Source of the DNA: Christensenella sp. UBA1224
GTDB taxonomy: Bacteria; Bacillota; Clostridia; Christensenellales; Aristaeellaceae
DNA: 38,758 nt
NCBI GenBank assembly: GCA_002309235.1
Contig: DBXA01000185.1
Location: forward strand, 6,418-45,175
Reading direction: 5' to 3'
The notes under the pieces were generated by a model that did not search any database, was not told the origin of the DNA, and saw nothing but the letters and a program-made list of their open reading frames with translations. The stretch's first letter is position 1. Each line of letters starts with the position of its first letter. This document shows, one piece after another, positions 7,134-36,555 of the stretch. Position numbers and translations under genes: made by a program.

Positions 7134-7150
7134 TAATCACGGGACTATGG

Positions 7151-8306: not shown

Positions 8307-8341
8307 TCTTTCTGAACGATCTGGTATAGGGAGTGCGAAGG

Positions 8342-9436: not shown

Positions 9437-9457
9437 CAGGGGAAGGGGGACAGGAAT

Positions 9458-10552: not shown

Positions 10553-10593
10553 TATTGAGCTGCGTGAACGAAAAATGAAACGGAGGGGATGGC

Positions 10594-11691: not shown

Positions 11692-11715
11692 GACGGAAAA
11701 GAGGGGGACAGGATC

Positions 11716-12810: not shown

Positions 12811-12831
12811 CAGGTGAATGGAGGCGTGAAT

Positions 12832-13926: not shown

Positions 13927-13946
13927 GATATAAGGAGATGGATAAC

Positions 13947-14954: not shown

Positions 14955-14956
14955 GT

Positions 14957-15847: not shown

Positions 15848-15861
15848 CGGAGGCGTTTGAT

Positions 15862-16626: not shown

Positions 16627-16643
16627 ATAGAAGGAGGGTTTTT

Positions 16644-18928: not shown

Positions 18929-18942
18929 AATCAAGCCTCCGT

Positions 18943-20811: not shown

Positions 20812-20922
20812 AGCAAAAATCCTGTATTTTATTCTGAAGCAGACAAAAAACACTATTAATTATAATGCATGTATACAGTACCATTTTCGGAAAACACAAT
20901 CAAGTTGAAACATGGATTTAAC

Positions 20923-20985: not shown

Positions 20986-21013
20986 TATTATGAAAGACAG
21001 GCAGGACATGCAT

Positions 21014-21973: not shown

Positions 21974-21988
21974 AGGAGGGAAGACCGT

Positions 21989-22921
21989 ATGCCGAAAAAA
22001 ATGAGAAAACAGGATAATGAAGCCATCATTCTGGCAACGGATTTCCGTCCGGCAAAAAGGGATAAGGTATTTTATGCAATCAACGGAGCCATACTTATAT
22101 TACTGACGCTGATCGTGTTGATCCCCCTTATCTATATTCTTGCCTGTTCCTTCTCCTCTCCAAGAGCTGTTGCAGGCGGCAAAGTATATCTCTGGCCGGT
22201 CGAATTCAGTGTGGAAGGCTACAGACGTGTTTTTGTCTATCCGAATATATGGGTGAGTTATGGAAATACGATCTTTTATACTATAGTCGGTACGGCTATC
22301 AATGTGGTCGTTACCATTCTATGTGCTTATCCGCTTGCAAGACGGGATCTGCCCTATAAGGGCATCATCATGTTTATCTTTACTTTTACTATGATGTTTT
22401 CAGGAGGAATGATACCAAGCTATATCCTGTTGAAAAACCTGGGAATGACGAATACCCGCTGGGCTATGCTGGTGCCGGGTGCCTTATCTGTTTACAATAT
22501 GATTGTAGCCAGAACGTTTTTGATGAATATCCCTTCTGATCTTTTGGATGCTGCCAGCATTGACGGATGCAATGATACCCAGTATTTTTTCCGCATAGCT
22601 CTTCCATTATCCGGGACGTTGATCTCGATGCTCGTCCTTTTTTATGCAGTTGGACATTGGAACAGCTATTTCAATGCTTTTTTGTACCTGTATGATAAGA
22701 AACTCATGCCTCTACAGATCGTTCTGCGTGAGGTGCTAGTTGCCAATTCCATCAATACAGAATCTATTGCAGATGAAAGCTCTTTTACCGCTATTGTCGG
22801 TATGAGTGAATTGATAAAGCATGCGCTTATCGTTGTATCAAGCGTGCCTATCCTTGTATTGTATCCCTTTCTTAGGAGATATTTTGTAAAGGGTGTTATG
22901 ATCGGCTCCCTGAAAGGCTGA
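21989..22921 (+). CDS. Carbohydrate ABC transporter permease (LplC-like), locus 2
   Basis: 310 aa, AAGGAGGG RBS, DAASIDGCNDTQYFFRIALPLS. Paralogue of 4537..5481. Confidence 0.85.
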   Translation: MPKKMRKQDNEAIILATDFRPAKRDKVFYAINGAILILLTLIVLIPLIYILACSFSSPRAVAGGKVYLWPVEFSVEGYRRVFVYPNIWVSYGNTIFYTIVGTAINVVVTILCAYPLARRDLPYKGIIMFIFTFTMMFSGGMIPSYILLKNLGMTNTRWAMLVPGALSVYNMIVARTFLMNIPSDLLDAASIDGCNDTQYFFRIALPLSGTLISMLVLFYAVGHWNSYFNAFLYLYDKKLMPLQIVLREVLVANSINTESIADESSFTAIVGMSELIKHALIVVSSVPILVLYPFLRRYFVKGVMIGSLKG

Positions 22922-22986: not shown

Positions 22987-24567
22987 ATGAAGAAGCTCTT
23001 ATCCCTCGTGTTGGCCGCGCTGATGGTGCTGTCAGTCATAGTGCCTATGGCTGCACTGGCAGATGAGAAAGAGACATTGAGGATTGTAATCCCTCAGGCG
23101 TCTTTGGTATCGGATTACGAGGACAACAAGTTTACCCAGTGGATCGAAGATGAGTGCGGGATTAATCTGGATTTTGTCGTTCTGCCGAACGATAATCCGA
23201 AGGACAAACTGTCTGTTATGGTAGCAGGCGGTGAAGATCTGGGTGATGTGCTATGCATTGGTCTCTCCTCCTCTGAGGCGATGACATTTGCCGATGCGGG
23301 AGCCATTATTCCGATCAATGAATTCTTCGATAAGTACGAAACGAATGTCGAGGCTTATGATGCGGAGACCGGTAAGAGCATACTGGGCCAGATCACGATG
23401 GTCGATGGCAATATCTATGGCATACCGGCGTATCTTGTTTCCATTTCTGATGAGCTTCGGTATCGTGCCTGGATTAACACCAGATGGCTTGAAAATGTTG
23501 GCATGGAATCTCCTACTACAACAGAAGAATTCTATGAAGTACTAAAAGCTTTCAAAGAGAAGGATGCGAACGGCAACGGTGATCCTAACGATGAGATCCC
23601 GATGATCGGCAACTCAAAGGGCTGGTCGACAGATTGCCGCATGTTCCTTACTAATGCGTTTGTTTATGAGGATGGCGGCTTCGGGTACCTGGTGGATGCA
23701 GAAGGCAAAGTAAGCTTCAACTACACGACAGATGAATACCGTGAAGCACTCCGGTACATGAATAAGCTGGTATCGGAAGGATTACTCGCAACTGATACCT
23801 TTACGCTTGAATATGCCCAGTATCAGGAAGTTCTGAACCATGATCCGACCAATGTTGGTGTGTTTACCTTTACTAACCCCATTGCTATGGATCAAAACAT
23901 ACCTGAGAACAAGTATTATCAGTTTGTGCAGCCGCTGGTAGGACCTGAAGGAAAACAGTATGTGACATACAATCCTACCCAACCGTCGCCCACCTGGTTC
24001 ATTACAGCAGATTCCAAGAATCCTGATCTTGCCTTTAAAGTTGGCGATTTCCTGTACAGTGAAGAATCTTACCTGCGCAACCGTGTAGGCGTACAGGGTG
24101 AGGATTGGGAACTGGCCGGCGAGGACATCTATGAGAAAATGGGTTATTCCGACGATATGATCATCTGGAAAGAGATTAACTATCCGTGGGAGAATCTGAG
24201 TAATACCTTCTGGCATCTGGGAGCACCTGCACTTTGCCGTCAGCCCAACTACATGTCCATGTGGAATGGAGACGAGAGCTACTATAACTATCGTCGTTGG
24301 AAGGGCTTGCTCTATTACATGGAGATCATGCCTGAGGAAGGAACCTACGTTCCTACGCTGAACTTTACACCGGAAGAAACGGAAGAGTTGGCAGAGATCC
24401 GTACAGCGATCGATACCTACAGGGCTGAGTGCCGTACGCGCTTCATCCTTGGAGATATGGATCTGGATACGGAGTGGGATGCGTACCTCAATGAATTGAC
24501 CAAGATGAACATTTCCCGCTATACCGAAATTTGTCAGACGGCATATAACAGGTTCCTAGGGAAGTAA
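22987..24567 (+). CDS. Extracellular solute-binding protein (LplA-type), locus 2
   Basis: 526 aa. Signal-like MKKLLSLVLAALMVLSVIVPMAALA/DEKE, and DANGNGDPNDEIPMIG. Paralogue of 5547..7133. AAGGAGG RBS. Confidence 0.85.
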   Translation: MKKLLSLVLAALMVLSVIVPMAALADEKETLRIVIPQASLVSDYEDNKFTQWIEDECGINLDFVVLPNDNPKDKLSVMVAGGEDLGDVLCIGLSSSEAMTFADAGAIIPINEFFDKYETNVEAYDAETGKSILGQITMVDGNIYGIPAYLVSISDELRYRAWINTRWLENVGMESPTTTEEFYEVLKAFKEKDANGNGDPNDEIPMIGNSKGWSTDCRMFLTNAFVYEDGGFGYLVDAEGKVSFNYTTDEYREALRYMNKLVSEGLLATDTFTLEYAQYQEVLNHDPTNVGVFTFTNPIAMDQNIPENKYYQFVQPLVGPEGKQYVTYNPTQPSPTWFITADSKNPDLAFKVGDFLYSEESYLRNRVGVQGEDWELAGEDIYEKMGYSDDMIIWKEINYPWENLSNTFWHLGAPALCRQPNYMSMWNGDESYYNYRRWKGLLYYMEIMPEEGTYVPTLNFTPEETEELAEIRTAIDTYRAECRTRFILGDMDLDTEWDAYLNELTKMNISRYTEICQTAYNRFLGK

Positions 24568-24579
24568 AAACCACTGTGT

Positions 24580-24604: not shown

Positions 24605-24660
24605 TTCTCCGTTGGTTGTTTATTGTAATAGATAGGGATTGGAAAGAAGGTTCAGAGAGA

Positions 24661-25698
24661 ATGGCTAATTATCCGTGGAAGTGGAAGGGCGTGCTTTTGA
24701 CTGCGCCTTTGAAAGGTGATATGGATGTCGTGTGTGAGCTGATTGAAAAAAAGCTTGCACCTGCCGGTGTCAATCTGGTGATCATTCAAACGCGTTATCG
24801 CTATGAGTTTAAGAGCCACCCTGAATGTACCGGGAATGAACCTATGTCTGAAGCGGACGTGAAACAGCTGTTGGGTGTATGCAGGGCAAATAACATTTGC
24901 CTCGTTCCCAAAATGAACCTTTTTGCACATCAATCCGGCCGCCTCAATGGGCCGCGTGACGGGATCTTACATGGTTATCATGAGGATGAAGATATCTTCC
25001 CGTATACGCTGGATGGCCTTTTGAAGGCTTATCCGGAATTCAATGAGACGCCGGATATCAAAACGGCGGATTATACGTTCAGCCTGTGCTTATCCAATTC
25101 CGATTGCGCCAGGATTGTATGTGATCTTATGGATGAGATGCTGGAAGTATTTGAGGCGGATGCACTCCATATCGGCTGTGATGAGGCGTTTGATATTGGT
25201 CTTTGTCCACGCTGCAGGGGGAAGGACAAAGTTAAGCTTTTTGCGGATTGGGTGACTATGCTGCATGACCATTTGGCGGCAAAAGGTGCAAAGACACTGA
25301 TGTGGGGAGACAGGTTTATTAATTCTGAAACATCAGGGTATAACAGTGCCTATGATGCCTGTACTGTGGGAACGGAAGCGGCTGTTAAGTTGATTCCGAA
25401 GGACATCATATTGTGCGACTGGCATTATGGTAAACATGAAGCATATAAATCAGTAGACATGTTTGCCGAAGAAGGCTTTAAGATGTTCTTCTCACCATGG
25501 CGTATTCCGGAAAATGCACTCGCGTTTTATAATTACGCAAAGTCACATGATAAAGGGCATATACTTGGTTTGCTTGCCACCACCTGGTGTTCATCTGGAG
25601 AACTGGCAAGAGCGATTCTCTATGGGGAGAAGCCTCGCTGGGAGAAAACGCAGGCGGTTATAGATGCGTGGAATGAAATGCTCTTCCAGGATCCATGA
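24661..25698 (+). CDS. GH20-like glycoside hydrolase (catalytic TIM-barrel only), cytoplasmic
   Basis: Trimmed to ATG 24661 (MANYPWKWKG). ALHIGCDEAFDIG resembles the HxGGDE catalytic Asp-Glu block of family 20 hexosaminidases, and LVPKMNLFAHQSG fits the barrel. Short (345 aa) and lacks the usual N-terminal domain. Confidence 0.5.
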   Translation: MANYPWKWKGVLLTAPLKGDMDVVCELIEKKLAPAGVNLVIIQTRYRYEFKSHPECTGNEPMSEADVKQLLGVCRANNICLVPKMNLFAHQSGRLNGPRDGILHGYHEDEDIFPYTLDGLLKAYPEFNETPDIKTADYTFSLCLSNSDCARIVCDLMDEMLEVFEADALHIGCDEAFDIGLCPRCRGKDKVKLFADWVTMLHDHLAAKGAKTLMWGDRFINSETSGYNSAYDACTVGTEAAVKLIPKDIILCDWHYGKHEAYKSVDMFAEEGFKMFFSPWRIPENALAFYNYAKSHDKGHILGLLATTWCSSGELARAILYGEKPRWEKTQAVIDAWNEMLFQDP

Positions 25699-25710
25699 GG
25701 AGGATAAAAT

Positions 25711-26700
25711 ATGGACATTAGATCATGTGGCGAAATGATCCGTAAATATGGCTTGATTGCTTCGCTTGGTTCAAATGCAAGGGATGCTGCAAGCGCATTC
25801 TCGAAGAATTGGGTACGTGTTTTTGAAGTATCTGATTCCGAAAAATGCCGAGAAATCCGGACTGTATGTTCTGATGCTGTCATTGGTGTGGCTGGGATCG
25901 AGGATGAAGAAGGCTGCCGCAATGCTATAGCATGTGGTACTTCTTATATTTCAACCTTTGGAGTCGATGACGATATTGCTTGTATCTGCCGGGAAAATGA
26001 AACGCTTTATATACCTTCGTGTTCTACTGCGGCGGAAATCTACCAAGCAAAAAAGTCAGGCTGCGGGATCGTAAAGTTTTATCCGGCCGGCTTATGTGGC
26101 GCTGTGGAGATGGTAAAAGCATTCGGTGAGAGATTCCCGGATGTGCTGTTGATCCCTGAAGGCCAGGTGGAGATTGGGAATATAGGGGATTATTCCTGCC
26201 TTAAAAATGTCTGCGCAGTTCAGCCTTCTGGCCTTCGGGTGGAAAACGTACAGGAGGCTGTCAGATGCCTGATTGGCTTTGAAATGTATCATATGGGTAT
26301 TAATATGCCTTCTGCGGCGGATTCGCAGGCTTTGGCTGCCAAATTCCGCGACGCTTTCGGCTTTGAAGCTGGTGAAGGTCCTTTTGCGTACTATTCCAGC
26401 CAGAATCTCCGCGTTATTGATAGCGTGCTTTTTGACTGTAATAAAAAAGCTGTTGTGGGAGGACCGGGCGCGTTTTATCAGACAGCAGACTTTGAGATCA
26501 TGAAGACTATGTCACGTGGAAAGAACGGACATATTGGTATTCGCGTTAATGATGGGCTTCGGGCAGTCGCATATCTGGAGGAAAAGGGTTGGATGATGGA
26601 GCCATCTACTTATTTCTATACAGACGGAAGGATTTTTACTGTATATTTGAAGGATGAGGACTTTGGCGGATTTGCCGTACATCTTCTCCAAAAATTTTAA
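25711..26700 (+). CDS. Eda (KDPG/KHG aldolase)-like domain fused to a C-terminal VOC/glyoxalase-like domain
   Basis: 329 aa. The N-terminal ~200 aa align by eye with E. coli Eda: VRVFEVS vs VRVLEVT, VIGVAGI vs IVGAGTV, IVKFYPAG vs FKFFPAE (Schiff-base Lys kept), LLIPEGQV vs RFCPTGGI. The C-terminal ~130 aa (MYHMGINMP...GHIGIRVND...AVHLLQK) look like a VOC-fold module. Confidence 0.55.
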   Translation: MDIRSCGEMIRKYGLIASLGSNARDAASAFSKNWVRVFEVSDSEKCREIRTVCSDAVIGVAGIEDEEGCRNAIACGTSYISTFGVDDDIACICRENETLYIPSCSTAAEIYQAKKSGCGIVKFYPAGLCGAVEMVKAFGERFPDVLLIPEGQVEIGNIGDYSCLKNVCAVQPSGLRVENVQEAVRCLIGFEMYHMGINMPSAADSQALAAKFRDAFGFEAGEGPFAYYSSQNLRVIDSVLFDCNKKAVVGGPGAFYQTADFEIMKTMSRGKNGHIGIRVNDGLRAVAYLEEKGWMMEPSTYFYTDGRIFTVYLKDEDFGGFAVHLLQKF

Positions 26701-26718
26701 AACAAGGAAGGCGCGGCT

Positions 26719-27720
26719 ATGAAGCTGTATATCGGATGCTATACCACCCGCCTGGAAGGGAAGGGCCTTGCGCAGCTGGAACTCGATGGAGATCGGCTGC
26801 GCCTTTCGGGTATTTATCGAGATATTGAGGACCCTCTGTACTGTGCGCTTTCTGATGATAGAAAGAGATTGTATGCAGTAGGAGTCGGAAGCGATGGAGA
26901 AGGATACTGCGTTGCTTATGATGTCAGCGGTGTTGTGCCGATCCTGATCTCGAAAGGTAAACTCGGTGCTCCGGACTGCTGTCACGTGGAATTGAGCCCT
27001 GATGAAAGGTTTGCTTACGCGGCATGCTACGCTTCGGGCAGAGTATCTGTATTGCCTATACAAGATGGCATAAAAGATACGATCCAGGTCATACAGCTCG
27101 AAGGCGGCAGCCATGTCAATCCACAAAGGCAGGATAAAGCTCACGCTCACCAGATCACGCTGATGCCGAAAAACGACAGGATAGCGCATGTTGTAGATTT
27201 GGGTAGTGATGAAATCGTGAGTTACAGGCGGGATAGCGTTACCGGAAAGCTTGCGGAGATAGGGAGAACACACGTAAGCCCCGGCTCTGGACCAAGGCAT
27301 ATCACTTATCATCCGAATGGACGTTATGCTTACCTTGCGTATGAGCTGGGGAATCTTGTAAGCATGATGGAATGGAAAGGTGATCATTGGGATATCCTGC
27401 AGACATTGTCCACTCTTCCGGAAGATGAACATATGGAAAGCTATGCTGGCGCGATTCGTTTTGATGAAGAGGCGGGAAAGGTGCTGGTGACCAACAGAGG
27501 ACATAACAGCATAGTCGTGTTTGATGTTATGAATGATGCGTATCTTTCGTTAGACAGGTTCATACCATGCGGTGGTGATTTCCCGCGCGATCTATGGCTG
27601 CTGAAAGATCGTAGGATGCTGACAGCCAATCAGCTTTCAGGAACAGTTGTTCTTTTAGATGAAAGAGGAAAGAAACTTTCGGAAGCACGTATTAATGCTG
27701 CCGTGAGCGTATGTGGATGA
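26719..27720 (+). CDS. Beta-propeller lactonase family protein (6-phosphogluconolactonase YbhE-like)
   Basis: 333 aa. MKLYIGCYT..., repeated blade-like segments, HAHQI, GSGPRHITYHPNGRYAYL and VTNRGHNSIVVFD are typical of the 7-bladed lactonase family. Confidence 0.7.
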   Translation: MKLYIGCYTTRLEGKGLAQLELDGDRLRLSGIYRDIEDPLYCALSDDRKRLYAVGVGSDGEGYCVAYDVSGVVPILISKGKLGAPDCCHVELSPDERFAYAACYASGRVSVLPIQDGIKDTIQVIQLEGGSHVNPQRQDKAHAHQITLMPKNDRIAHVVDLGSDEIVSYRRDSVTGKLAEIGRTHVSPGSGPRHITYHPNGRYAYLAYELGNLVSMMEWKGDHWDILQTLSTLPEDEHMESYAGAIRFDEEAGKVLVTNRGHNSIVVFDVMNDAYLSLDRFIPCGGDFPRDLWLLKDRRMLTANQLSGTVVLLDERGKKLSEARINAAVSVCG

Positions 27721-28859
27721 TGGATATTCTTGAAGAAGCACGTCAGTTTCGAAGAGACCTGCACAGGATACCGGAATTAGGTTTTCAGGAACATGAAACG
27801 TGTAATTATCTTTGGAAAATTTTGAAGGAAACTTTGCCGGATTCTCTGGACATTTTCTGCGGCACAGGGATCCGAGCAGTCTATAGGTGTAATGTTCCAC
27901 ACAGCGAAACAGTAGCATTCCGTGCGGATATGGACGCCTTGCCTATATGTGAAGAAACCGGGCTCACGTTTGCTTCTGTTCATGAAGGCGTTATGCATGC
28001 GTGCGGCCATGATGGTCATATGGCGGCTCTTCTCTTGCTTGCCAGGAAAATCTCGAGAGAGAGGGAAAAGCTCTGCCGAAATGTTGTGTTGATTTTCCAG
28101 CCTTCCGAGGAAACCCGTTGCGGTGCGGCAAAAATGGTAGCAGCGGGTGTCCTGGAAAAACCTGACATAGATAGGATTTACGCTTGTCACTTGTGGCCTG
28201 GGATCAGAAAAGGTTATTTTGCGACAAAGGCAGGCGTGCTTATGGCACAGGCTTGTTATCCTGATATTACGATCGATGGACAAGCAGCGCATGGAGCCAA
28301 TCCGGATCAGGGCTCGGATGCTGTGGTGGCGGCTTCCGGCTTGATCCAGGCGTTGCAGACGGTCATTTCCCGCAACACGCCGCCTGAGAGGGCGGTAGTT
28401 ATCACCTTTGGCCGAATTGAAGGCGGTGCGGGGCGTAATATCATACCGGCGCATGTTCGAATGGAAGGGACTGTTCGTGCATTTAGTGCGGAAGATTTCG
28501 ATCGGACAATAAAACGAATGGAGGAAATCATCCTGGGTATCGGAACGGCATACAATGTACGTATAGAAATGAAAACAAATGATCATTATCCATGCGTTGA
28601 TAATGATGTATCTCTGGCAGAAGGGCTAAGACGCTTACTCGGCAGCAGGCTGGAATTAGCTGAACCTGTACCAAATGCAGAGGATTTTTCGTATTACCAG
28701 CTAAAGGTGCCTGGTGTTATGTTATTCGCAGGTATCGACGATGGTGTGCATGAGACAAGGCTTCACAGCCCGCGTTTTAACTTTGATGAGGCGATTTTGC
28801 CAGATATGGCGGATCTTTACTGGCGCATCATACAACAGGATCGGGAGGAGTTAATATGA
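27717..28859 (+). CDS. M20D-family amidohydrolase (N-acyl amino acid / amino-sugar-type deacylase)
   Basis: The start ATG 27717 overlaps the upstream stop as ATGA. FRRDLHRIPELGFQEHET, MHACGHDGHMAALL and FQPSEE are the signature blocks of hippurate-hydrolase/ILR1-type M20D enzymes. Confidence 0.85.
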   Translation: MMDILEEARQFRRDLHRIPELGFQEHETCNYLWKILKETLPDSLDIFCGTGIRAVYRCNVPHSETVAFRADMDALPICEETGLTFASVHEGVMHACGHDGHMAALLLLARKISREREKLCRNVVLIFQPSEETRCGAAKMVAAGVLEKPDIDRIYACHLWPGIRKGYFATKAGVLMAQACYPDITIDGQAAHGANPDQGSDAVVAASGLIQALQTVISRNTPPERAVVITFGRIEGGAGRNIIPAHVRMEGTVRAFSAEDFDRTIKRMEEIILGIGTAYNVRIEMKTNDHYPCVDNDVSLAEGLRRLLGSRLELAEPVPNAEDFSYYQLKVPGVMLFAGIDDGVHETRLHSPRFNFDEAILPDMADLYWRIIQQDREELI

Positions 28860-29749
28860 ATATAGGGTTTATTGGATTAGGTGTCATGGGAAAACCTATG
28901 GCAGGAAATCTGCTCAAAGCAGGTTATTCGTTGAAGGTATATGATATTGATCCGAACAGCGTAGCTGTGATGGCGGAACAAGGAGCGATAAAGGCAATAA
29001 GTGCAAAAGATGCTGCACAGGATGCCGATGTCGTAATCACAATGCTGCCTGATGGGCCACAGGTCAAAAGTGTGATTTTGGGAGAAGATGGCCTGATCAA
29101 TGTCATGAAATCTGGCAGCATACTGCTTGATATGAGCAGCATTTCACCTGTAGATAGTGTCAAAATTGCACGGGAGTTGGAAAAGAAAGGTATATCCATG
29201 TTGGATGCGCCGGTCTCGGGAGCATATGCCAAAGCAGTAGATGGCACGCTTTCGATCATGGTAGGCGGCCATGAGGAAGATCTTGCAAAAGTCATGCCGC
29301 TTCTGGAAGTATTGGGAGGAACGATCGTGCATATCGGGCCTTCCGGCAGCGGAAGTGCCTGCAAGCTTGCAAATCAGATCGTTATAGCTGCAGGGATCGC
29401 TGCTGTCGGCGAGGCGTTCATGCTCGCTAAACTCCAGGGATGCGATCTCGAAAAAGTATTTACGGCGGTCAGCAGCGGGTTTGCGGGCTCTACACTGATG
29501 AATTCAACCGTACCGAGAATGCTTGCTGGCAACTACGAGCCTGGATTCAGAATCGATCTGCATCTCAAGGATATCCGCAATGCAGTAAATGCGGGTGATG
29601 CTTGCGGCGCTCCTATGCCTCTGGCTAAGCATATGCTGAGTGTTTTGACCGAGTTATCAAAACAGGGAGACGGCAGCCTTGACAACAGTGGGATTGTTCG
29701 ATATTACGAAAAGACAACGGGAAAAGTGTTTAAGGAAGGTGATGATTGA
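28856..29749 (+). CDS. NAD(P)-dependent beta-hydroxyacid dehydrogenase (2-hydroxy-3-oxopropionate reductase / HIBADH family), copy 2
   Basis: 297 aa. The ATG overlaps the upstream stop (ATGA). MNIGFIGLGVMGKPMAGNL, LDAPVSGAYAKA, KLANQIVIA, DLHLKDI. Paralogue of 16644..17522. Confidence 0.85.
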   Translation: MNIGFIGLGVMGKPMAGNLLKAGYSLKVYDIDPNSVAVMAEQGAIKAISAKDAAQDADVVITMLPDGPQVKSVILGEDGLINVMKSGSILLDMSSISPVDSVKIARELEKKGISMLDAPVSGAYAKAVDGTLSIMVGGHEEDLAKVMPLLEVLGGTIVHIGPSGSGSACKLANQIVIAAGIAAVGEAFMLAKLQGCDLEKVFTAVSSGFAGSTLMNSTVPRMLAGNYEPGFRIDLHLKDIRNAVNAGDACGAPMPLAKHMLSVLTELSKQGDGSLDNSGIVRYYEKTTGKVFKEGDD

Positions 29750-29750
29750 A

Positions 29751-30773
29751 ATGGGAAAAGGTGATATCCCTGTTCTGGGATTGATGCTGGGAGATCATGC
29801 CGGTTGCGGACCAGAGCTTGTGGCAAAGGCTCTTCTGGCAAAAAAAACAGACAACTATACAGCGGTACTAGTAGGCAATCGGGAGCGCTTCGAAAAGTCG
29901 CGAACTTGTGTGGAAGGCGCTGAAAATATTCAGATAATCCCGTGGGATGGATCTGACAGGCCAGAGCAGGCGTCAGGTTGTACAGCGTATTTCTATGATG
30001 TTCCTGCTGGACCAGATATAGAATTCGGTAAAGCAACGGCAGATGGGGGGCGTCTGATCTTTGACAGTATCAAGGCGGCAATAGAATTGCAGAATGCAGG
30101 AAAGATAGACGGCATTCTCATGGCTCCGATTACGAAAGCAGGCCTCCATATGGCCGGTTACACTTATACATCGGAATTTGAACTGTTTGGTGACCTATAT
30201 GGTACAGGGGAAGCGGCATCTGTTCTGAAGTGCGAAAACTACTTCCGTGCGACAGTCGTCGGGCATTGTGCATTTCGTGAGATTGCTGACAGGATAACAA
30301 CGGAACGTATTCTTGTCACGGCTCATAGACTCCTGGATAAAATGAGTGTCTTCCTTAAGCCGGATGATATTCGTATAGCGATTGCGGCCTTAAATCCGCA
30401 TGCCGGCGAAGGCGGATTGTTTGGAAATGAGGAAGCGACTGTAATACAGCCGGCGATCGATCAGCTGCGTGATGAAGGTTTTAATGTAGCAGGACCATGG
30501 CCTAGTGATACCGCTTTGAATAGGGTGAGATCAGGAGAAGCTAATGGAATCGTATACCTCTACCATGATCAGGGTAATATCGCAATGAAGGCTGTTAATT
30601 TCGGCGGTATAATTCTTATGTATGTGGAGATTCCGGGATTGATTGTTTCTGTCGGCCATGGCCCTGCCATGGACAAGGCGGGCACTGGTCAAGCAACCGC
30701 TGTTAATATCATTGAAAGTATCAATGTCCTGACGATGCTTTCAAAAAAGAAATTGGCAGGTGAAAAGTATTGA
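29751..30773 (+). CDS. PdxA-family NAD-dependent hydroxyacid(-phosphate) dehydrogenase (PdxA2-like), copy 2
   Basis: Trimmed from 29679 to ATG 29751 ([22 protein letters not shown]), directly after the upstream stop. [18 protein letters not shown]. Confidence 0.8.
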
Positions 30774-31531
30774 GTGAGTTTACTGGAAAGACTGTTATTG
30801 TTACTGGGGCTTCCAGTGGTATCGGTAAAGGAATTGCACGAAGATTCTTTCAGGAAGGGGCGAATATGGCCCTTTGCAGCCGTTCAAAAGAGAGAGTTGA
30901 TCAAGCGGCCGCAGAGTATGCAAACCTTCCGGATGAGCGCATATTCTCAATGGATTGCGACATGTCGGATACAGCAGCTATTCGATCTTTTGTCAAAGCC
31001 GTTATAGAGAAATACGGGTCAATTGATATCCTTGTGAACGATGCTGGACTTAGTTTTCCAACGCCCTCTCTGGAATTTACGGAAGAACATTGGGATACGA
31101 CCTTCGATGTTAACATCAAAGGGATGTTTTTCATGAGCCAGGAAGTTGTACGGTATATGATAAAGGCAGGCAAAGGCGCTATTGTCAATATCGGTTCCGT
31201 CAACTCTGTGACGGTTGTGATTGGACAAGCGGCATACGCAGCGTCAAAAGCCGGTATATCTCAGATGACGCGCAGCCTTGGCAGAGAATGGGCGCGCAGC
31301 GGCATCAGAGTGAACTGTGTTGCCCCTGGAAGCATTCCGGCTAAATGCAATGAAAAGATGTATTCAGATCCGGAAGTACTTAAGGCGATGTGTGATAAGA
31401 TTCCTATGGGACGCAGGGGGGAAGTGGACGAGATAGCGGATGCAGTCCTTTTCCTGGCATCTTCCAGAGCAAGTTATATCACGGGACAGACTTTGTTTGT
31501 AGACGGCGGTCTTACGCTGGTACAAGGATAG
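30770..31531 (+). CDS. SDR family oxidoreductase, copy 2
   Basis: The TTG start overlaps the upstream [27 protein letters not shown]. Paralogue of 15862..16626. Confidence 0.85.
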
Positions 31532-31544
31532 GAGGTTATTCATT

Positions 31545-32219
31545 ATGGAAAAGAAGATCAGGGTAGGCGTGGTACACACATTTCTTTACTCGGTGGAGGA
31601 TATCAAGGCCCAATTCCGTGCGCAGCTGCCGGAAGTTGAGATGATCAACATCATCGACGACAGCCTATTGGAGGAAGCGCTGGCACACGGAGCCATCACG
31701 AGTGGTATCATTGCCCGTATGTGCGATTACTACCAGAACCTGCAGGATTTGGGGTGTGTCTGTGCCTTGAACCAATGTTCGTCGGTAGGCGAAGCCTCGG
31801 ATATCGCTGGAAAACTGATCGATGTTCCGATCTTTAAGATCGACAGGCCTATGGCAAAGCGTGCAGCAGAGCTCGGTGAGAGGGTAGCTGTGATAGCGAC
31901 AGCATGCTCCACAGTAGAGCCTTCCAGCCGCCTGGTAGAGACAGAAGCGGCGAAGCTCGGCAAAAAGGTAACGGTAGACCGCTGCTTTGTGGAAGGCGCG
32001 TATGACTTCCTGCTGAAGACGGGCGATAAGCAGAAACACAATGAGATGGTGATCGCCAAAGTGGAAAAAGCGGCTGAGGATCATGATGTCATCGTACTGG
32101 CACAGGGATCAATGTTCCATCTTATGCCGCTGCTGGGACATATCAAAGTGCCGGTGTTGACGAGCCTTGAGACGGGTATCGCTCAGATCCGCGGCTATCT
32201 GGACAGTCTGAAAGCATAA
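31545..32219 (+). CDS. Asp/Glu/hydantoin racemase-family protein (single-Cys variant)
   Basis: 224 aa, AGGAGG RBS. CALNQCSSVGE...DVPIFKI...GERVAVIAT...DVIVLAQGSMF aligns by eye with the hydantoin racemase pattern IACFGDPG...PVIGI...VVTT...IVLGCAGM. Confidence 0.65.
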   Translation: MEKKIRVGVVHTFLYSVEDIKAQFRAQLPEVEMINIIDDSLLEEALAHGAITSGIIARMCDYYQNLQDLGCVCALNQCSSVGEASDIAGKLIDVPIFKIDRPMAKRAAELGERVAVIATACSTVEPSSRLVETEAAKLGKKVTVDRCFVEGAYDFLLKTGDKQKHNEMVIAKVEKAAEDHDVIVLAQGSMFHLMPLLGHIKVPVLTSLETGIAQIRGYLDSLKA

Positions 32220-32240
32220 AAACCAAGGAGGAAAAAAACT

Positions 32241-33296
32241 ATGAAAAAGATACGTGTTGGAGTAGCGGGATACGGTACGATCGGCCAGAGGCTGGCGGAT
32301 GGTGTGGCAATGCAGGGAGATATGGAACTGGTCGGTATCGCTGATCTGGCGCCTACTCTGTCGATACGGGCACTGGCAGAAAATGATATGATCGGCGCGA
32401 ACGGCGTGAAGTATGATCTGTATCTGGTGGAAGGCGCTGAGAAGAGCCAATTTGATGAGCTTGGTATCCCTGTTGCCGGCACATTTGAAGAGCTCATCAA
32501 GAGTGTCGATATCATGCTGGACAGTGCACCGGGCGGCGTAGGGGCGAAGAACAAAGTGCTCTATGAGAAATACGGCGTAAAAGCCATATTCCAGGGCGGA
32601 GAGAAGAATTCCGTTGCGGATGTATTCTTCCATGGATATGCGAACTATGAAAAAGGCGTAGGAGCACAGTACCTGAAACTGACAAGCTGCAATACCACCG
32701 GCCTGATCCGTGCGGTCGATGCTCTGGATCGTGAGATAGGAATAGAAAAGGTAGCGATCACGATCATCCGCCGTGTGGCTGATCCGGGAGATTATCATCG
32801 TGGACTTACTAACGCGCTTCAGATGGAAAAAGCACCTTCGCACCAAGCGGTTGACTTGATGACGATCATGCCGCATGTTGAAGCGACCGGTATACTGGTA
32901 CATACGCCGGTAACGCATGGGCATATCATCACGGTTCTCGCTACGGCGAAGGATGGAAAGAAGATCACGAAGGAAAAAGCACTGGAGATATTCAAAAAAC
33001 ATCCGCGCATCCGCGTGGTCTCGATCGCGGAAGGGTTCAAGGGAAACGCGAGTCTCTTCAAGTATGCACGTGATCTGGGCAACAGGCGCGGTGATATGTA
33101 TGAGATAGGTCTGTGGGAGGATTCAATCGTTGAGTCTGGCAATGATATCATGTTTGCGATCAATATCCCGCAGGAATCCGTTACGATTCCTGAGACGATA
33201 GATGGTATCCGTGCTGCAATGTGCATGCAGAAGACGCGTGAGGAAGGAACGGCAGAAACGAATAAATACCTGAATATCGGCAAATTCAAGAAATAA
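32241..33296 (+). CDS. Class II (archaeal-type) glyceraldehyde-3-phosphate dehydrogenase homologue
   Basis: 351 aa. VGVAGYGTIGQRLA Rossmann start. The active site reads LTSCNTTGL, which is the SCNTT order of archaeal class II GAPDH rather than bacterial SCTTN. AAGGAGG RBS. Confidence 0.8.
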   Translation: MKKIRVGVAGYGTIGQRLADGVAMQGDMELVGIADLAPTLSIRALAENDMIGANGVKYDLYLVEGAEKSQFDELGIPVAGTFEELIKSVDIMLDSAPGGVGAKNKVLYEKYGVKAIFQGGEKNSVADVFFHGYANYEKGVGAQYLKLTSCNTTGLIRAVDALDREIGIEKVAITIIRRVADPGDYHRGLTNALQMEKAPSHQAVDLMTIMPHVEATGILVHTPVTHGHIITVLATAKDGKKITKEKALEIFKKHPRIRVVSIAEGFKGNASLFKYARDLGNRRGDMYEIGLWEDSIVESGNDIMFAINIPQESVTIPETIDGIRAAMCMQKTREEGTAETNKYLNIGKFKK

Positions 33297-33312
33297 GCAG
33301 ATTGATAAGGAG

Positions 33313-33343
33313 CGGACGGGGATACTATATGTATCTCCGTCCG
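33313..33343 (+). other. 12-bp stem-loop in the GAPDH-PGK intergenic region
   Basis: CGGACGGGGATA (33313-33324) pairs with TATCTCCGTCCG (33332-33343), with one G-U pair and a 7-nt loop. Only TTT follows, so it is not a canonical terminator. Confidence 0.5.
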
Positions 33344-33361
33344 TTTGAGCGGAGGCAGAAA

Positions 33362-34621
33362 ATGAGATTTGGTATATACACGCTGGACGATTATGATCTG
33401 AAAGGTAAAACGGTTCTGTGCAGGGTGGATATGAATCAGCCGGTCGACCGTGTTTCAGGTAAACTGAAGAGCACGCAGAGGATCAAAGCCTGCGCGCCGA
33501 CGGTCAGGGAGCTTTCCGATAAAGGCGCGAAAACGGTTGTTTTGGCCCATCAGGGGAGCGATATCGAATATAAAAATTATTATACGACGGAGCCTCATGC
33601 CAAGACGTTGGAAGAATTTGTCGGAAAGCCGGTAAGCTTTATCGACGATGTCTGCGGACCGGCAGCAAGGCAGGCTATTTCAGATTTGAAGGAAGGAGAG
33701 ATACTGCTGCTTGATAATGTTCGTTTCTGCGCAGAAGAACAGACGCTCTTCGAGACAAAGTTGTGCCTCACGCATGAAGAGCAGGCGCATACGCAGGTGG
33801 TGGAGAAGCTTGCGCCGCTCGCAGATCTGTATGTCTGCGATGCGTTTGCAGCGGCACACCGGGACCAGCCGACATTATGCGGCTTCGAACAGGTACTTCC
33901 TTCTGCGATGGGCCGGCTTTTCGAGAAGGAATACTGCGTGGTTTCGGAATTGATGGAAGCGCCTGCTCATCCATGTGTTTTCGCCTTGGGCGGAGCAAAG
34001 ATATCGGATGCTTTTATGATGATGGAAACCGTTCTGAAAGCGGGTACTGCGGATGTGATCCTGACGGGCGGTCTCGTGGGAGAGATCCTTCTGGCTTCGC
34101 AGGGCATAGAGATCGGGAAGGGAACTATGGATTTCATTCTCCGTTCCAATTATGGGGAATTCATTGAGAAGGCGAAGGATATCTACGCAAAATACGCAGG
34201 CAGCATTGTGTTGCCTGTTGACCTGGCTTGCGTCAAGAATGGCAAGCGCGAAGAAGCCCGCGTCGGGGTTATCCCAGCCGATTTTGATTCTTCGGATATC
34301 GGTTCCATGACAGCTGCACAATACCGGGATAAGATCCTCGGAGCAGCTACTGTGTTCGTGAACGGGCCTATGGGGATATTCGAGCAGAAGGAAAGTGAAC
34401 TGGGAACAAAGGTGGAATTTGAAGCATTGGCGGAGACAAAGGCATATACCGTAGTCGGAGGCGGTGACAGCGTGACGGCGGCAAAGCAATACGGGGTGAC
34501 GGATAAGATCGGTTACGTATGCACAGGCGGAGGCGCGCTCATCCGTTTCCTGACAGGTGAAGAACTGCCTGTCGTGAAAGCGCTCAGGCATGCGGCAAAA
34601 ACGTTTCCGGCGGATCGTTGA
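33362..34621 (+). CDS. pgk: Phosphoglycerate kinase homologue, archaeal-like
   Basis: Trimmed from 33302 to ATG 33362 (MRFGIYTLDDY), 7 nt after GGAGG. RVDMNQPV, VVLAHQG (archaeal AHQG rather than bacterial SHLGRP), LLLDNVRF, DAFAAAHR, LGGAKISD, GGGDS and CTGGGA are PGK blocks. Confidence 0.8.
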   Translation: MRFGIYTLDDYDLKGKTVLCRVDMNQPVDRVSGKLKSTQRIKACAPTVRELSDKGAKTVVLAHQGSDIEYKNYYTTEPHAKTLEEFVGKPVSFIDDVCGPAARQAISDLKEGEILLLDNVRFCAEEQTLFETKLCLTHEEQAHTQVVEKLAPLADLYVCDAFAAAHRDQPTLCGFEQVLPSAMGRLFEKEYCVVSELMEAPAHPCVFALGGAKISDAFMMMETVLKAGTADVILTGGLVGEILLASQGIEIGKGTMDFILRSNYGEFIEKAKDIYAKYAGSIVLPVDLACVKNGKREEARVGVIPADFDSSDIGSMTAAQYRDKILGAATVFVNGPMGIFEQKESELGTKVEFEALAETKAYTVVGGGDSVTAAKQYGVTDKIGYVCTGGGALIRFLTGEELPVVKALRHAAKTFPADR

Positions 34622-34654
34622 TGCGCTTGAATAACCGGAGAAAGGAGAAGCAGG

Positions 34655-35719
34655 ATGAAAATATATAAAATGGCGGTCATAGCCGGTGACGGTATCGGGC
34701 CGGAAGTTCTCAGGGAAGGAATAAAGGTGCTGGATACAGTCGCAGAAAAGGATGGCGGTTTCCGCTTTGAATGGACGTATTTTCCATGGGGCTGCGAATA
34801 CTACCTGAAGCATGGCAGGATGATGGCAGAAGACGGGATAGAGACGCTGAAGGGTTTTGATGCGATCTACCTTGGCGCGGTCGGAGCGCCTGGTGTACCG
34901 GATCATATCTCATTGTGGGATCTGTTGCTCGTGATCCGCAAGAGTTTTGATCAATATGTGAATCTGCGCCCGGTAAAGCTGCTGCGAGGTGCACCTTGTC
35001 CGCTTAAAGATGCAAAGCGCGAAGATATCGATATGGTATTTGTGCGGGAGAACAGTGAAGGCGAATATGCGGGCAGCGGTAGTTGGCTTTACAAAGGCAA
35101 GCCGAATGAAGTAGTGATTCAGAACGGCGTTTTTTCACGCGTAGGCTGCGAACGGGTGATCCGGTATGCATATGAGCTTGCCCGCAGAGACAGGAAGACG
35201 CTGACAAGTGTAAGCAAAGGGAACGCGCTGAACTATTCGATGGTGTTCTGGGATCAGATATTCAAAGAAGTAGGAAAGGAATACCCGGATGTAGAGACGC
35301 ACAGCCTGCTGGTAGATGCCGCGAGCATGTTTATGGTAAAGGACCCAAAGAGATTCCAGGTTGTTGTGACAAGCAATCTTTTCGGCGATATTCTTACCGA
35401 TCTTGGTGCAGCGATCTCGGGGGGCATGGGGCTTGCGGCAGGAGCAAACCTGAACCCGGAGAGGAAATATCCCTCTATGTTCGAACCGATACACGGTTCT
35501 GCCCCGGATATCGCGGGCAAAGGAATAGCTGACCCACTGGCTTCTATCTGGTCTGCCAGTCAGATTTTGGACTTTTTCGGAGAAGAAGAATGGGGAAAGA
35601 AGATCCTTGGAGCAATCGAACAGCTGCTTACGGAAGGGAAGACGCTTACGCCTGACATAGGCGGTACGGCATCCACATCCGAAGTCGGCAGTGCTGTGGC
35701 AGAGATACTGCGGAGATAA
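34655..35719 (+). CDS. Tartrate dehydrogenase/decarboxylase / D-malate dehydrogenase (isopropylmalate-DH superfamily)
   Basis: 354 aa. Near-colinear match to my memory of E. coli DmlA: IAGDGIGPEV, FDAIYLGAVG.P.VPDHISLW, FDQYVNLRPV, VRENSEGEY, SNLFGDILTDLG, NLNPER.YPSMFEPIHGSAPDIAGKGIA(D/N)P. Confidence 0.85.
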   Translation: MKIYKMAVIAGDGIGPEVLREGIKVLDTVAEKDGGFRFEWTYFPWGCEYYLKHGRMMAEDGIETLKGFDAIYLGAVGAPGVPDHISLWDLLLVIRKSFDQYVNLRPVKLLRGAPCPLKDAKREDIDMVFVRENSEGEYAGSGSWLYKGKPNEVVIQNGVFSRVGCERVIRYAYELARRDRKTLTSVSKGNALNYSMVFWDQIFKEVGKEYPDVETHSLLVDAASMFMVKDPKRFQVVVTSNLFGDILTDLGAAISGGMGLAAGANLNPERKYPSMFEPIHGSAPDIAGKGIADPLASIWSASQILDFFGEEEWGKKILGAIEQLLTEGKTLTPDIGGTASTSEVGSAVAEILRR

Positions 35720-35726
35720 GAGAGAT

Positions 35727-36482
35727 ATGAAGCAGGAAGAAATACGGATACAGTCGACTTTGGATGGCAGTTTGCAGCCGTCGCTCTTGTACAGACCTGA
35801 TCTGACCGGGAAGCAGCCTCTTCTCGTGGGCTTGCATACCTGGAGCCATGACCGTTTCAATCAGGTAAGCAGAATGGTGCCATGGGCAGAGGCATTGGGC
35901 TTTGGCTTACTTCTGCCCGAGTTCCGCGGTCCGAACCTGGATACCAATCCGCGATGCACGCAGGCTTGCGGTTCTGAATATGCCATGCGGGATATCAGGG
36001 ATGCTATAGACGAATGCATTCGCAAAGGGATCGCGGATCCTGCGCATATTTTCCTGTACGGCGCAAGCGGAGGCGGCCATATGGCGCTGATGATGGCGGG
36101 TAACTGTCCGGAATACTTTGAAGCTATTGCAGCTTTTGTACCGATAACGGATCTGGAAAAATGGGCGGATGAAAATGCGGTCTATCGTCGACATGTTTGT
36201 GCCTGCTGCTCGAACGACCCGATTGAAATGGCAAAACGTTCCCCGATGTCGTATATTGATGGCATTGCGCGGGCGAATGTGAAGATCTTTCACGGTAAGT
36301 ATGACCCTACCGTGCCTGTAGGACACAGTATACGCCTTTTTACGGAGATCATGCTGAAATATCCCCAGAATCACGTATACCTGGATGTTTTCGATGGCGG
36401 GCATGAGACGGATGAACTGCTGGCGCTCCACTGGATCCGCACGCAGTATCAGAAGAGAAAACTGACAACAGTAACAGGGTAA
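35727..36482 (+). CDS. Alpha/beta hydrolase (S9/dienelactone-hydrolase-like esterase)
   Basis: Trimmed from 35691 to ATG 35727. GASGGGHMAL is a GxSxG nucleophile elbow, with a later HGKYDPTVP and GGHE for the Asp/His. No signal peptide. Confidence 0.65.
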   Translation: MKQEEIRIQSTLDGSLQPSLLYRPDLTGKQPLLVGLHTWSHDRFNQVSRMVPWAEALGFGLLLPEFRGPNLDTNPRCTQACGSEYAMRDIRDAIDECIRKGIADPAHIFLYGASGGGHMALMMAGNCPEYFEAIAAFVPITDLEKWADENAVYRRHVCACCSNDPIEMAKRSPMSYIDGIARANVKIFHGKYDPTVPVGHSIRLFTEIMLKYPQNHVYLDVFDGGHETDELLALHWIRTQYQKRKLTTVTG

Positions 36483-36510: not shown

Positions 36511-36555
36511 AAAAACAGGCAGAAAGCACCAGATGATGCGATACTGCCTGTTTTT
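36511..36555. terminator. Bidirectional terminator between convergent operon 2 and ilvE
   Basis: AAAAACAGGCAG (36511-36522) pairs with CTGCCTGTTTTT (36544-36555). The 21-nt loop is large. A-run and T-run arms suit both strands. Confidence 0.6.

Follow-up and report, generated by a model that had tools for sequence, protein, structure and literature searches.

The window analysed here, a stretch of 38,758 nucleotides from Christensenella sp. UBA1224 (assembly GCA_002309235.1, contig DBXA01000185.1, positions 6,418 to 45,175), carries an operon of 15 closely packed open reading frames (ORFs) on its + strand, between positions 20990 and 36482. This operon can be read as a system for the uptake and kinase-free oxidative catabolism of a beta-N-acetylhexosamine-capped glycoside, in which homologues of glyceraldehyde-3-phosphate dehydrogenase (GAPDH) and phosphoglycerate kinase (PGK) would make ATP from a C4 aldehyde-acid. 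We give this reading, which is built on predicted protein functions, a probability of roughly 0.45. The operon is real and conserved, and it is apparently undescribed.

In the proposed route, an ATP-binding cassette (ABC) importer would bring in the glycoside, which a cytoplasmic glycoside hydrolase of family GH20 would cleave. The freed sugar would be oxidised at C1 by a short-chain dehydrogenase/reductase (SDR), the lactone opened by a beta-propeller lactonase, and N-acyl and O-acyl groups stripped by an M20D amidohydrolase and an esterase. Oxidative decarboxylation by a PdxA-like dehydrogenase, aided by a beta-hydroxyacid dehydrogenase (bHADH), the VOC-like domain of an Eda-like protein (EdaX) and a one-cysteine protein of the racemase superfamily (Race), would shorten the acid to a small 2-hydroxy-aldehyde, most likely a C4 aldehyde-acid (D-malate or tartrate semialdehyde). 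The GAPDH homologue (GAPDH2) would convert this aldehyde, with phosphate, into an acyl phosphate, and the PGK homologue would use the acyl phosphate and ADP to form ATP and D-malate or tartrate. Finally, a tartrate/D-malate dehydrogenase of the TTC family (TDH) would yield pyruvate and CO2; alternatively, glycerate could be formed via tartronate semialdehyde and the bHADH. We infer both the substrates and the order of these steps, the end module, with its steps from aldehyde-acid to pyruvate or glycerate, being the best-supported mechanistic part and the upstream steps a working model.

The original prediction had singled out the twelve genes from 24661 to 36482 as a candidate undescribed oxidative route. 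Its general logic, in which oxidation at C1, opening of a lactone and the work of decarboxylating dehydrogenases lead to C3/C4 acids, holds, as do the gene content and the operon, and its suggestion of an aldonic or aldaric acid as the substrate is plausible. The closed twelve-gene set, the aldolase step and the reading of GAPDH and PGK, however, need revision.

Operon structure and gene content

The components of the unit, with the scores of their Pfam and NCBIfam profile matches, are as follows.

20990..22921, + strand: two ABC permeases of the CUT1 sugar type (Pfam BPD_transp_1)
22987..24567, + strand: extracellular solute-binding protein of 526 aa, with a signal peptide (Pfam SBP_bac_1)
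24661..25698, + strand: cytoplasmic single-domain GH20 enzyme of the lacto-N-biosidase/Niako3494-type clade (Pfam GH20, 34.2 bits; cut-off 22.3)
25735..26700, + strand: Eda-like TIM barrel with a VOC-like C-terminal domain, EdaX (Pfam Aldolase, 71.2 bits; cut-off 27.8)
26719..27720, + strand: 7-bladed beta-propeller lactonase of the Pgl/gluconolactonase family (Pfam Lactonase, 231 bits)
27711..28859, + strand: M20D amidohydrolase of the N-acyl-amino-acid type (Pfam M20, M20_dimer; TIGR01891, 306 bits; cut-off 154)
28856..29749, + strand: bHADH, tartronate-semialdehyde-reductase-like, with near-miss NCBIfam scores just under the GarR/GlxR cut-offs (NF008592, 361.5 against 397; TIGR01505, 337 against 340.75)
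29742..30773, + strand: PdxA-family metal/NAD-dependent (decarboxylating) dehydrogenase (Pfam PdxA, 225 bits)
30770..31531, + strand: SDR, glucose-1-dehydrogenase-like, above the cut-off of that subfamily (NF005559, 247.7 bits against 215)
31545..32219, + strand: Asp/Glu-racemase-superfamily protein with one catalytic Cys, Race (Pfam, 47.7 bits)
32241..33296, + strand: type II (archaeal-type) phosphorylating GAPDH homologue, GAPDH2, above curated cut-offs (NF003251, 398.2 bits against 185; TIGR01546, 298 against 232.9)
33329..34621, + strand: archaeal-type PGK homologue (Pfam PGK PF00162, 375 bits)
34655..35719, + strand: TDH, a decarboxylating dehydrogenase of the TTC family (TIGR02089, 503.8 bits against 470.4; NF006048 borderline, 495.1 against 501)
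35727..36482, + strand: alpha/beta-hydrolase esterase (Pfam Peptidase_S9, BD-FAE)
36511..36555, no strand assigned: bidirectional intrinsic terminator, a hairpin between convergent genes, with A/U tracts

The twelve ORFs from 24661 onwards belong to the families originally named and are separated by -10 to +36 nt. The unit as a whole holds four gene overlaps and a largest gap of 93 nt, the gaps in its upstream part (20990-24661: permeases, binding protein and GH20 gene) being 15, 65 and 93 nt. The predicted terminator is real, with a hairpin of -26.5 kcal/mol (z = -4.07) and A and U tracts on either side. The twelve-gene extent was right in its content but probably not in its start: the transcription unit is larger and most likely starts at 20990, with the two permeases and the binding protein, rather than at 24661. 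A weak hairpin with a T-rich tail (24594-24615) lies directly 3' of the binding-protein gene, and may be a partial terminator that sets the level of the binding protein above that of the enzymes.

A common strand, short or overlapping gaps, one strong terminator and a gene order kept at a related locus, L105 (loci retrieved for comparison carry the prefix L), give the string the character of a single operon, as had been proposed, and it is not made of several independent known operons. L105, which is from an organism diverged from that of the window, has the same order (GH20-EdaX-lactonase-M20D-bHADH-PdxA-SDR-Race-GAPDH2), with protein identities of 55-91%. Because this order is kept and the same enzymes recur behind TRAP transporters (L097, L107, L109), the string is a functional unit and not a chance one. 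Proteins identical to those of the window are found in Logan assembly SRR5324840 and in GCA_016648615.1.

No described pathway fits the string, either in homology searches or in the open-access literature, and its proteins fall short of the NCBIfam equivalog cut-offs, the GAPDH and TDH models excepted. Pfam and NCBIfam scans of the string proteins found no dehydratase, deaminase, pyridoxal phosphate (PLP) enzyme or sugar kinase, the lack of the last having been noted in the original prediction, and a sugar-acid dehydratase domain (Edd/IlvD, enolase-type or GarD) is found in no ORF of the window. Gene content, operon structure, conservation, modularity and active-site motifs are established.

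The GAPDH-PGK end module

The GAPDH and PGK homologues make most sense as a module for substrate-level phosphorylation that works on a carboxylate analogue of glyceraldehyde 3-phosphate (GAP), and not as a stray glycolytic pair. A search for relatives of GAPDH2, with one genome per species, returned at least 510, and the neighbours of the best 80 loci were mapped by ORF calling and BLASTP, with transketolase and malic enzyme identified by Pfam. These 80 relatives, 79-93% identical to the GAPDH2 of the window, are from gut and rumen members of the Clostridia, Christensenellales, Sphaerochaetaceae and Erysipelotrichaceae, and close homologues are annotated from metagenome-assembled genomes (MAGs) of Oscillospiraceae, Faecousia and Lachnospiraceae. 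The gene is accompanied by PGK at 70 of the 80 loci, by LarA at 64, by a split transketolase at 52, by iolE/B/D/G at about 40 and by malic enzyme at 31; PdxA, EdaX, GH20 and TDH are neighbours at none (0/80), and a gap-pgk-tpi context never occurs. The GAPDH-II-PGK pair is a mobile module; the window has therefore borrowed genes that are usually at home in inositol-type clusters without IolC and IolJ.

Such clusters, which combine iolG/E/B/D, a split transketolase, type II GAPDH, PGK, LarA and malic enzyme, are widespread and are seen at L014, L018-L021, L027, L041-L044 and others; positions 8973-20257 of L021 offer an example, and IolC, IolJ and IolA are lacking from them. This usual home of GAPDH2-PGK has iolG/E/D/B in common with the classical myo-inositol pathway (IolG, E, D, B, C, J, A); split transketolase, GAPDH2, PGK, LarA and malic enzyme stand where that pathway has the kinase IolC, the aldolase IolJ and IolA. 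No iol genes occur in the window itself. Read from C6, the product of IolB (5-dehydro-2-deoxy-D-gluconate) is a 2-ketose of the D-threo configuration, as transketolase requires. By established stereochemistry, removal of C6-C5 by transketolase would leave OHC-CHOH-CH2-COO-, that is, D-malate semialdehyde, which has the stereochemistry of D-GAP with a carboxylate replacing CH2-O-phosphate. Phosphorylating GAPDH and PGK would then turn D-malate semialdehyde into D-malate with the formation of ATP, and the cluster has the look of an undescribed inositol route that depends on transketolase, yields ATP and ends in D-malate. Use of D-malate calls for a LarA-family racemase with malic enzyme, or for a decarboxylating dehydrogenase such as the TDH of the window and L107, so that two independent contexts (the inositol-type clusters and the window/L107 type) would converge on a C4 hydroxy-diacid. 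It is on these grounds that we propose, with a little less than even confidence, that the GAPDH/PGK pair of gut and rumen anaerobes is an unrecognised module that makes ATP while oxidising non-phosphorylated 2-hydroxy-aldehyde-acids of the C4 type (D-malate semialdehyde, tetruronates) to D-malate or tartrate, and that terminates a family of kinase-free pathways for sugars and sugar acids.

Active-site motifs offer modest evidence, consistent with an altered substrate for both predicted enzymes. Members of the bacterial clade of GAPDH2 share 60% identity or more with one another, and no more than 43% with archaeal-type sequences. The catalytic cysteine motif SCNTTGL and the Arg-Arg pair of I[IV]RRVADPGD are each present in 86/86 copies. 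Only two clade-specific changes separate the clade from 22 archaeal-type sequences, and one of them turns PSHH into PSHQ: residue 202 is Gln in all five clade members compared and His in 18 of the 22 archaeal-type representatives. We take the histidine pair of PSHH to be part of the phosphate sites. As for PGK, the domain is full length (positions 1-379 of 379 of PF00162), with 2CUN as its best match in the Protein Data Bank (PDB; 5e-88). The basic patch that holds the 3-phosphate comprises His62, Arg65, Arg122 and Arg170 (yeast numbering). The homologue keeps the equivalents of Arg38, His62, Arg122 and Arg170, and thus most of the residues that bind 3-phosphoglycerate (3-PG), but HQGSD in place of HQGKP/HLGRP puts Ser-Asp at the Arg65/Lys position in 75 of 76 copies.

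Compared with archaeal type II GAPDH and PGK, the pair shares the fold, the catalytic cysteine, most substrate-binding residues and the overall conversion of aldehyde plus phosphate to acyl phosphate and then ATP. It differs in its setting, among catabolic genes that include LarA, transketolase and either malic enzyme or TDH, and in its proposed substrate, a carboxylate analogue of GAP. Race, which accompanies GAPDH-II and PGK rather than M20D at the loci compared, passes its Pfam family cut-off. It lacks the two catalytic cysteines of Asp/Glu/hydantoin racemases: Cys78 is invariant, and the second catalytic position is Ser189 in five of five homologues. Its AlphaFold2 (AF2) model, built without an alignment, has a pLDDT of 55.

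The open-access literature searched holds no natural ATP-yielding route through malate semialdehyde and malyl phosphate. Both intermediates bring to mind two known systems, namely a synthetic malyl-phosphate pathway, which runs in the reductive direction at the C4 carboxyl with an engineered aspartate kinase and aspartate-semialdehyde dehydrogenase (PMC5481828), and the malic semialdehyde dehydrogenase of carnitine catabolism, a non-phosphorylating aldehyde dehydrogenase (PMC11353897).

Several further observations concern the distribution of the module. GAPDH identities of 87-88% between Spirochaetes and Clostridia (L031, L039 and L054, from Spirochaetales/Sphaerochaetaceae MAGs) suggest a recent horizontal spread among gut and rumen anaerobes. 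P0078, a protein of 508 aa, fuses a type II GAPDH homologue (88% identity) to a PfkB carbohydrate-kinase domain, in a cluster of 82 member sequences. L066 (1562-11466) carries LysR, a Race homologue (73%), KduI/IolB-like, MBL-fold and creatininase-family proteins, followed by GAPDH2-PGK-LarA. Upstream of IolG in L018-L030, L041, L043, L060 and L081, many of them Lachnospiraceae-like, stand four tandem HAD-family phosphatase paralogues and an iPGM-like metalloenzyme, which may tie the inositol-type cluster to inositol phosphates; a divergent LacI-PHP-PfkB unit lies near the same IolG clusters.

Modularity and the upstream steps

The string is modular rather than a closed twelve-gene invention, and its modules recombine with TRAP or ABC front ends, the front ends (uptake and hydrolase) being interchangeable. 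The core module consists of SDR, lactonase (propeller or MBL), PdxA and bHADH; M20D and the Eda/VOC protein form an add-on module; and the end module comprises Race, GAPDH-II and PGK, then TDH or LarA. The minimal form, L009/L010, reads ABC-GH20-EdaX-lactonase-PdxA-SDR. Behind TRAP transporters, L097 has the order TRAP-SDR-mutarotase (aldose 1-epimerase)-M20D-EdaVOC-Race-GAPDH2-PGK-LarA, and L107 the order PdxA-MBL-TRAP-SDR-Race-bHADH-GAPDH2-PGK, with a TDH 85% identical to that of the window 5 kb off and a second PdxA a few kb upstream. At L109 and L099-L103, a LysR gene is followed by bHADH-PdxA-MBL-TRAP-SDR-mutarotase (epimerase)-M20D-EdaVOC, and L106/L108 read PdxA-MBL-TRAP-SDR-PdxA-EBP-bHADH, plus either a glycerate kinase and an Fe-ADH or an epimerase. 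The PdxA-MBL-TRAP-SDR core is widespread and appears uncharacterised. The TRAP system together with the mutarotase argues for an acidic reducing sugar; the nearest solved relatives of the TRAP binding protein are 4PC9 and 4PCD, presumably complexes with D-mannonate and L-galactonate.

From their families, the SDR and the lactonase, together with the mutarotase of the TRAP clusters, indicate a putative C1 oxidation followed by lactone opening. PDB relatives of the propeller lactonase include 3HFQ, 6IGB (PpgL) and Pgl, and those of the PdxA-like protein 2HI1 and 6E85; the latter protein misses all equivalog cut-offs (TIGR00557, 218 against 290; NF002891, 162 against 583) and is placed at the Pfam level only. 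Enzymes of the PdxA family convert a 2,3-dihydroxy or 2-amino-3-hydroxy acid into a 1-hydroxy or 1-amino 2-ketone that is one carbon shorter. The GldA-type dehydrogenase that stands at L101 where other loci have Race-GAPDH2-PGK is a natural reductase for such ketols, and Race-GAPDH2-PGK would be the oxidative alternative to it, after isomerisation of the ketol to a 2-hydroxy-aldehyde.

Several acid-sugar pathways combine PdxA-family and beta-hydroxyacid dehydrogenases, such as those with the D-threonate/D-erythronate enzymes PdxA2-LtnD, with ApnO (D-apionate oxidoisomerase) and, for ascorbate in Cupriavidus, with a decarboxylase of the PdxA type. These pathways, those of the PdxA2/LtnD type included, resemble the middle of the string in placing a PdxA-like enzyme and a beta-hydroxyacid dehydrogenase beside an acid-sugar transporter, and in the oxidative decarboxylation or rearrangement of 2,3-dihydroxy acids. 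They need, however, DUF1537 kinases, class II aldolase-type decarboxylases or RuBisCO-like proteins, none of which is present in the window. In the oxidative uronate/aldarate pathway (Udh, lactonase, GarL, GarR, GarK) and in the sulfo-ED pathway, a sugar 1-dehydrogenase and a lactonase act first, and an aldehyde product is then reduced or oxidised. The tartronate-semialdehyde-reductase-like enzyme and, at L106, a glycerate kinase recall these systems, but the window lacks a GudD/GarD, IlvD or Edd dehydratase and an HpcH-type aldolase, and its aldehyde oxidation would conserve energy through an acyl phosphate. ApnO is mentioned in PMC12994016.

The GH20 enzyme qualifies as a beta-N-acetylhexosaminidase/lacto-N-biosidase by its profile match, its close solved relatives (8BAL and 9FYL/9FYM, ~1e-52) and its catalytic Asp-Glu pair (HIGCDE motif, residue 170), and no signal peptide is predicted for it; its placement in the lacto-N-biosidase/Niako3494 clade follows PMC11776370. 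M20D, whose PDB relatives include YxeP and ILR1-like proteins, and the esterase indicate N-acyl and O-acyl groups on the substrate. A GDSL esterase at the end position of L007 is the counterpart of the alpha/beta hydrolase.

EdaX had been described as an Eda-like aldolase-VOC fusion. Its Eda-like family and its additional C-terminal domain are borne out, but the VOC label is weak, as it relies on sub-threshold matches and a compatible AF2 topology. In the barrel, the Schiff-base lysine (IVKFYPA) and the general-base glutamate (FEV) are kept in the window, L105 and L009, and the score for the NCBIfam eda subfamily is 84.2, below its cut-off of 156. Arg49, Thr73 and the phosphate loops of KDPG/KHG aldolases (TGGV, GGSW) are lost, with SDS, GIE, EGQV and QPSG in their place. 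In the C-terminal domain, His186, Glu254, His266 and His316 are invariant among homologues, and the match to Pfam Glyoxalase_4 has an E-value of 0.16 (12.7 bits against 27) in the window and 3e-4 in the L011 homologue. The AF2 model (pLDDT 92) shows beta-alpha-beta-beta-beta modules with a topology compatible with VOC, and a fold search with it returned only KDPG aldolases, the C-terminal domain being matched by nothing.

Because Arg49, Thr73 and the phosphate loop are lost, and the partners in TRAP clusters lack the Schiff-base lysine, a true aldolase step is doubtful, and in pathways of this family the Eda-like domain probably does not act as one. The lysine is gone from the Eda-VOC homologues of L007, L096, L097, L101 and L109; as the C-terminal domain stays conserved there, the aldolase barrel of the TRAP clusters looks like a pseudo-enzyme scaffold. 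The replacing residues are S, G, A/N, H or N (L007 10001-11029, L096 3212-4180, L097 4972-5961, L101 9917-10885 and L109 17924-18898). The fusion seen in the window is a rare one, with identities of 54, 44, 37 and 36% to its nearest relatives; a single-protein search of genome contigs found no relatives. A common Eda-VOC fusion of 318-319 aa with an intact aldolase site (L011/L012, 6174-11998), of which one sequence cluster has 1471 members, neighbours two polysaccharide deacetylases, an SDR, a 438-aa protein, a PfkB kinase and a branched-chain-type ABC importer; it is part of a separate, kinase-using amino-sugar-acid route.

The window also carries the following neighbouring features.

18943..20853, - strand: AraC-family regulator of 636 aa, divergent, with an N-terminal membrane/sensor region (Pfam HTH_18, HTH_AraC)
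7212..17522, + strand: paralogous operon, six tandem CelC-like GH5 genes, then PdxA-MBL-SDR-bHADH

The full paralogous unit (1309-17522) also holds two permeases, a binding protein and, on the - strand at 1309-3213, an AraC regulator 26% identical to that at 18943-20853. Its six cytoplasmic CelC-like GH5 proteins are 59-89% identical to one another; its PdxA, SDR and bHADH are 47, 63 and 49% identical to the downstream copies, and its PdxA-MBL-SDR-bHADH module is closest to the TRAP-type clusters L106/L107. Because this operon has no Race, GAPDH, PGK or TDH genes of its own, it probably feeds the end module of the downstream operon. The permeases of the downstream operon are 74-75% identical, and its binding protein 70% identical, to those of the minimal operon L009. 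Between the two operons lies an ORF of 432 aa (17636-18934, - strand) with no Pfam or NCBIfam match and no homologue in any fetched locus.

Alternative readings and significance

Several observations weigh against the proposed route. The enzymes present do not define one unique chemistry leading from a hexosamine to a C4 aldehyde-acid; transketolase is absent from the window, and each operon has a single PdxA. Between the M20D proteins of the TRAP clusters and that of the window, identity is just 32%. In the GH20-type operons the Schiff-base lysine is kept, so an aldolase step is possible there. GAPDH2 is a type II GAPDH equivalog by score, and most phosphate-site residues of GAPDH2 and PGK are kept, which leaves room for true GAP/3-phosphoglycerate activity. 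Moreover, at L057 (205-15603) GAPDH2-PGK-transketolase has as neighbours a Zn-dependent polyol dehydrogenase and an ABC importer of the ribose type, together with a creatininase-family protein, an epimerase of the UxaE family and an isomerase/epimerase of the AP_endonuc_2 type. This locus represents a third kind of pathway using the module, for a polyol or neutral sugar; the aldehyde, therefore, need not carry a carboxylate, and its tail may vary.

Among the alternatives, the one that fares best, although it is unlikely, is an N-acetylhexosamine version of the non-phosphorylative Entner-Doudoroff or ong-like route. The SDR and lactonase would yield an N-acetylhexosaminate, M20D would deacetylate it, and deamination, perhaps by Race or the VOC domain, would give a 2-keto-3-deoxy-hexonate, which EdaX would cleave to pyruvate and glyceraldehyde; GAPDH2 and PGK would then take glyceraldehyde to glycerate with the formation of ATP. 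Among known systems, the front half of the string is most like the ong pathway of Pseudoalteromonas, which degrades GlcNAc1A from oxidative chitin breakdown. There, a GH20 enzyme acts on an N-acetylhexosamine glycoside, the N-acetyl-amino-aldonic acid is deacetylated like an N-acyl amino acid, and the end is of the KDG/Eda type (PMC9537276, PMC12017989). The GH20, the N-acyl-amino-acid amidohydrolase and the Eda-type protein of the window parallel OngA, OngB and the KDG aldolase (PMC9537276, PMC12017989); the SDR is glucose-1-dehydrogenase-like, and an EdaX with Lys and Glu, but no phosphate loop, suits an unphosphorylated substrate.

Nevertheless, the two systems share only the GH20 step, the families of OngB-type D-aminoacylase, OngC and KDG kinase being absent from the window. 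The aldonic acid of the ong pathway is made extracellularly by a lytic polysaccharide monooxygenase, whereas the SDR and lactonase would make the acid inside an anaerobe. OngB has a D-aminoacylase fold, and the candidate deacetylase here is M20D; nothing in the window corresponds to OngC, a PLP deaminase, or to the kinase KdgK, and the ong pathway has no equivalents of PdxA, GAPDH-II, PGK and TDH. The string holds no deaminase or dehydratase family, and the Schiff-base lysine is missing from the EdaVOC proteins that accompany M20D in TRAP clusters. L107 has Race-GAPDH2-PGK without M20D and EdaX, so Race is not tied to an amino group. This alternative also leaves no role for PdxA, which is always present, or for TDH, and most anion-binding arginines of PGK are kept.

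Somewhat less probable still is that GAPDH-II and PGK are ordinary GAP/3-phosphoglycerate enzymes acquired from archaea, which boost lower-glycolytic or gluconeogenic capacity while kinases encoded elsewhere feed triose phosphates. The equivalog score of GAPDH2, the full-length PGK match, the conserved catalytic cysteine, Arg-Arg pair and four of five 3-PG-binding residues, and the very high conservation across families (79-93%) all suit this view. It sits poorly, however, with flanking genes such as LarA, transketolase and malic enzyme or TDH in place of gap-pgk-tpi, with the lack of any kinase or aldolase yielding triose phosphate in the string or in most iol-type clusters, and with the clade-fixed changes at phosphate-site positions.

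An imported sugar already esterified with an anion, such as 6-O-sulfo-GlcNAc from mucin or a phosphorylated glycan, would let enzymes of the phospho-sugar type work without a kinase. For five families of the string (Pgl-like lactonase, Eda, PdxA, GAPDH and PGK) the classical substrates are phosphorylated, the GH20 clade has been compared with 6-sulfo-GlcNAcases and lacto-N-biosidases, and the source is a gut/rumen Clostridium. This option is nonetheless improbable, as the phosphate-binding loop of Eda is lost, sulfatase and phosphatase are absent from the string, the same enzymes occur behind TRAP transporters with mutarotase, and GAPDH2-PGK is common to inositol-type clusters that have no sulfate or phosphate logic. 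A chance juxtaposition of small operons (a hexosaminidase, a tartrate utilisation pair and a gluconeogenic pair), to which the weak hairpin after the binding-protein gene and a possible tartrate-to-glycerate route by TDH and the tartronate-semialdehyde-reductase-like enzyme alone could point, is very improbable given start and stop codons that overlap or lie close throughout, the single strong terminator, the order conserved in L105 and the rearranged set held together in L097 and L107.

Candidate substrates were also considered and not adopted. N-acetylmuramic acid or muropeptides would be in keeping with GH20, M20D and the esterase, as well as with an acidic sugar and LarA, but do not fit the clusters without M20D. 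D-apiose is a neutral sugar, and its decarboxylase/kinase set is absent. Ascorbate, 2,3-diketogulonate and L-threonate fit PdxA, the MBL lactonase, TRAP and tartrate, but not GH20, GH5 or mutarotase. Like these candidates, pseudomurein N-acetyltalosaminuronic acid, N-acetylhexosaminuronic acids, aceric acid/Dha, 4-O-methyl-glucuronate and an iterative Ruff-like chain shortening of aldaric acids offer no unique route to a C4 aldehyde-acid with the enzymes present.

Should the proposed kinase-free route with its ATP-yielding GAPDH-PGK module be true, sugar acids and cyclitols would serve abundant Clostridia of gut and rumen as a source of ATP, with none invested in a kinase reaction. The kinase-free family would include a transketolase-dependent inositol route, in hundreds of species, as well as the chain-shortening route of the window by PdxA, lactonase and SDR. 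Recruited archaeal glycolytic enzymes acting on carboxylate analogues of GAP would constitute a new energy-conserving reaction pair, and many genes automatically annotated as "type II GAPDH", "PGK" or "PdxA" would be given a function. The route would then also point to an acidic or N-acetylated sugar of dietary, host or microbial origin as a nutrient niche.

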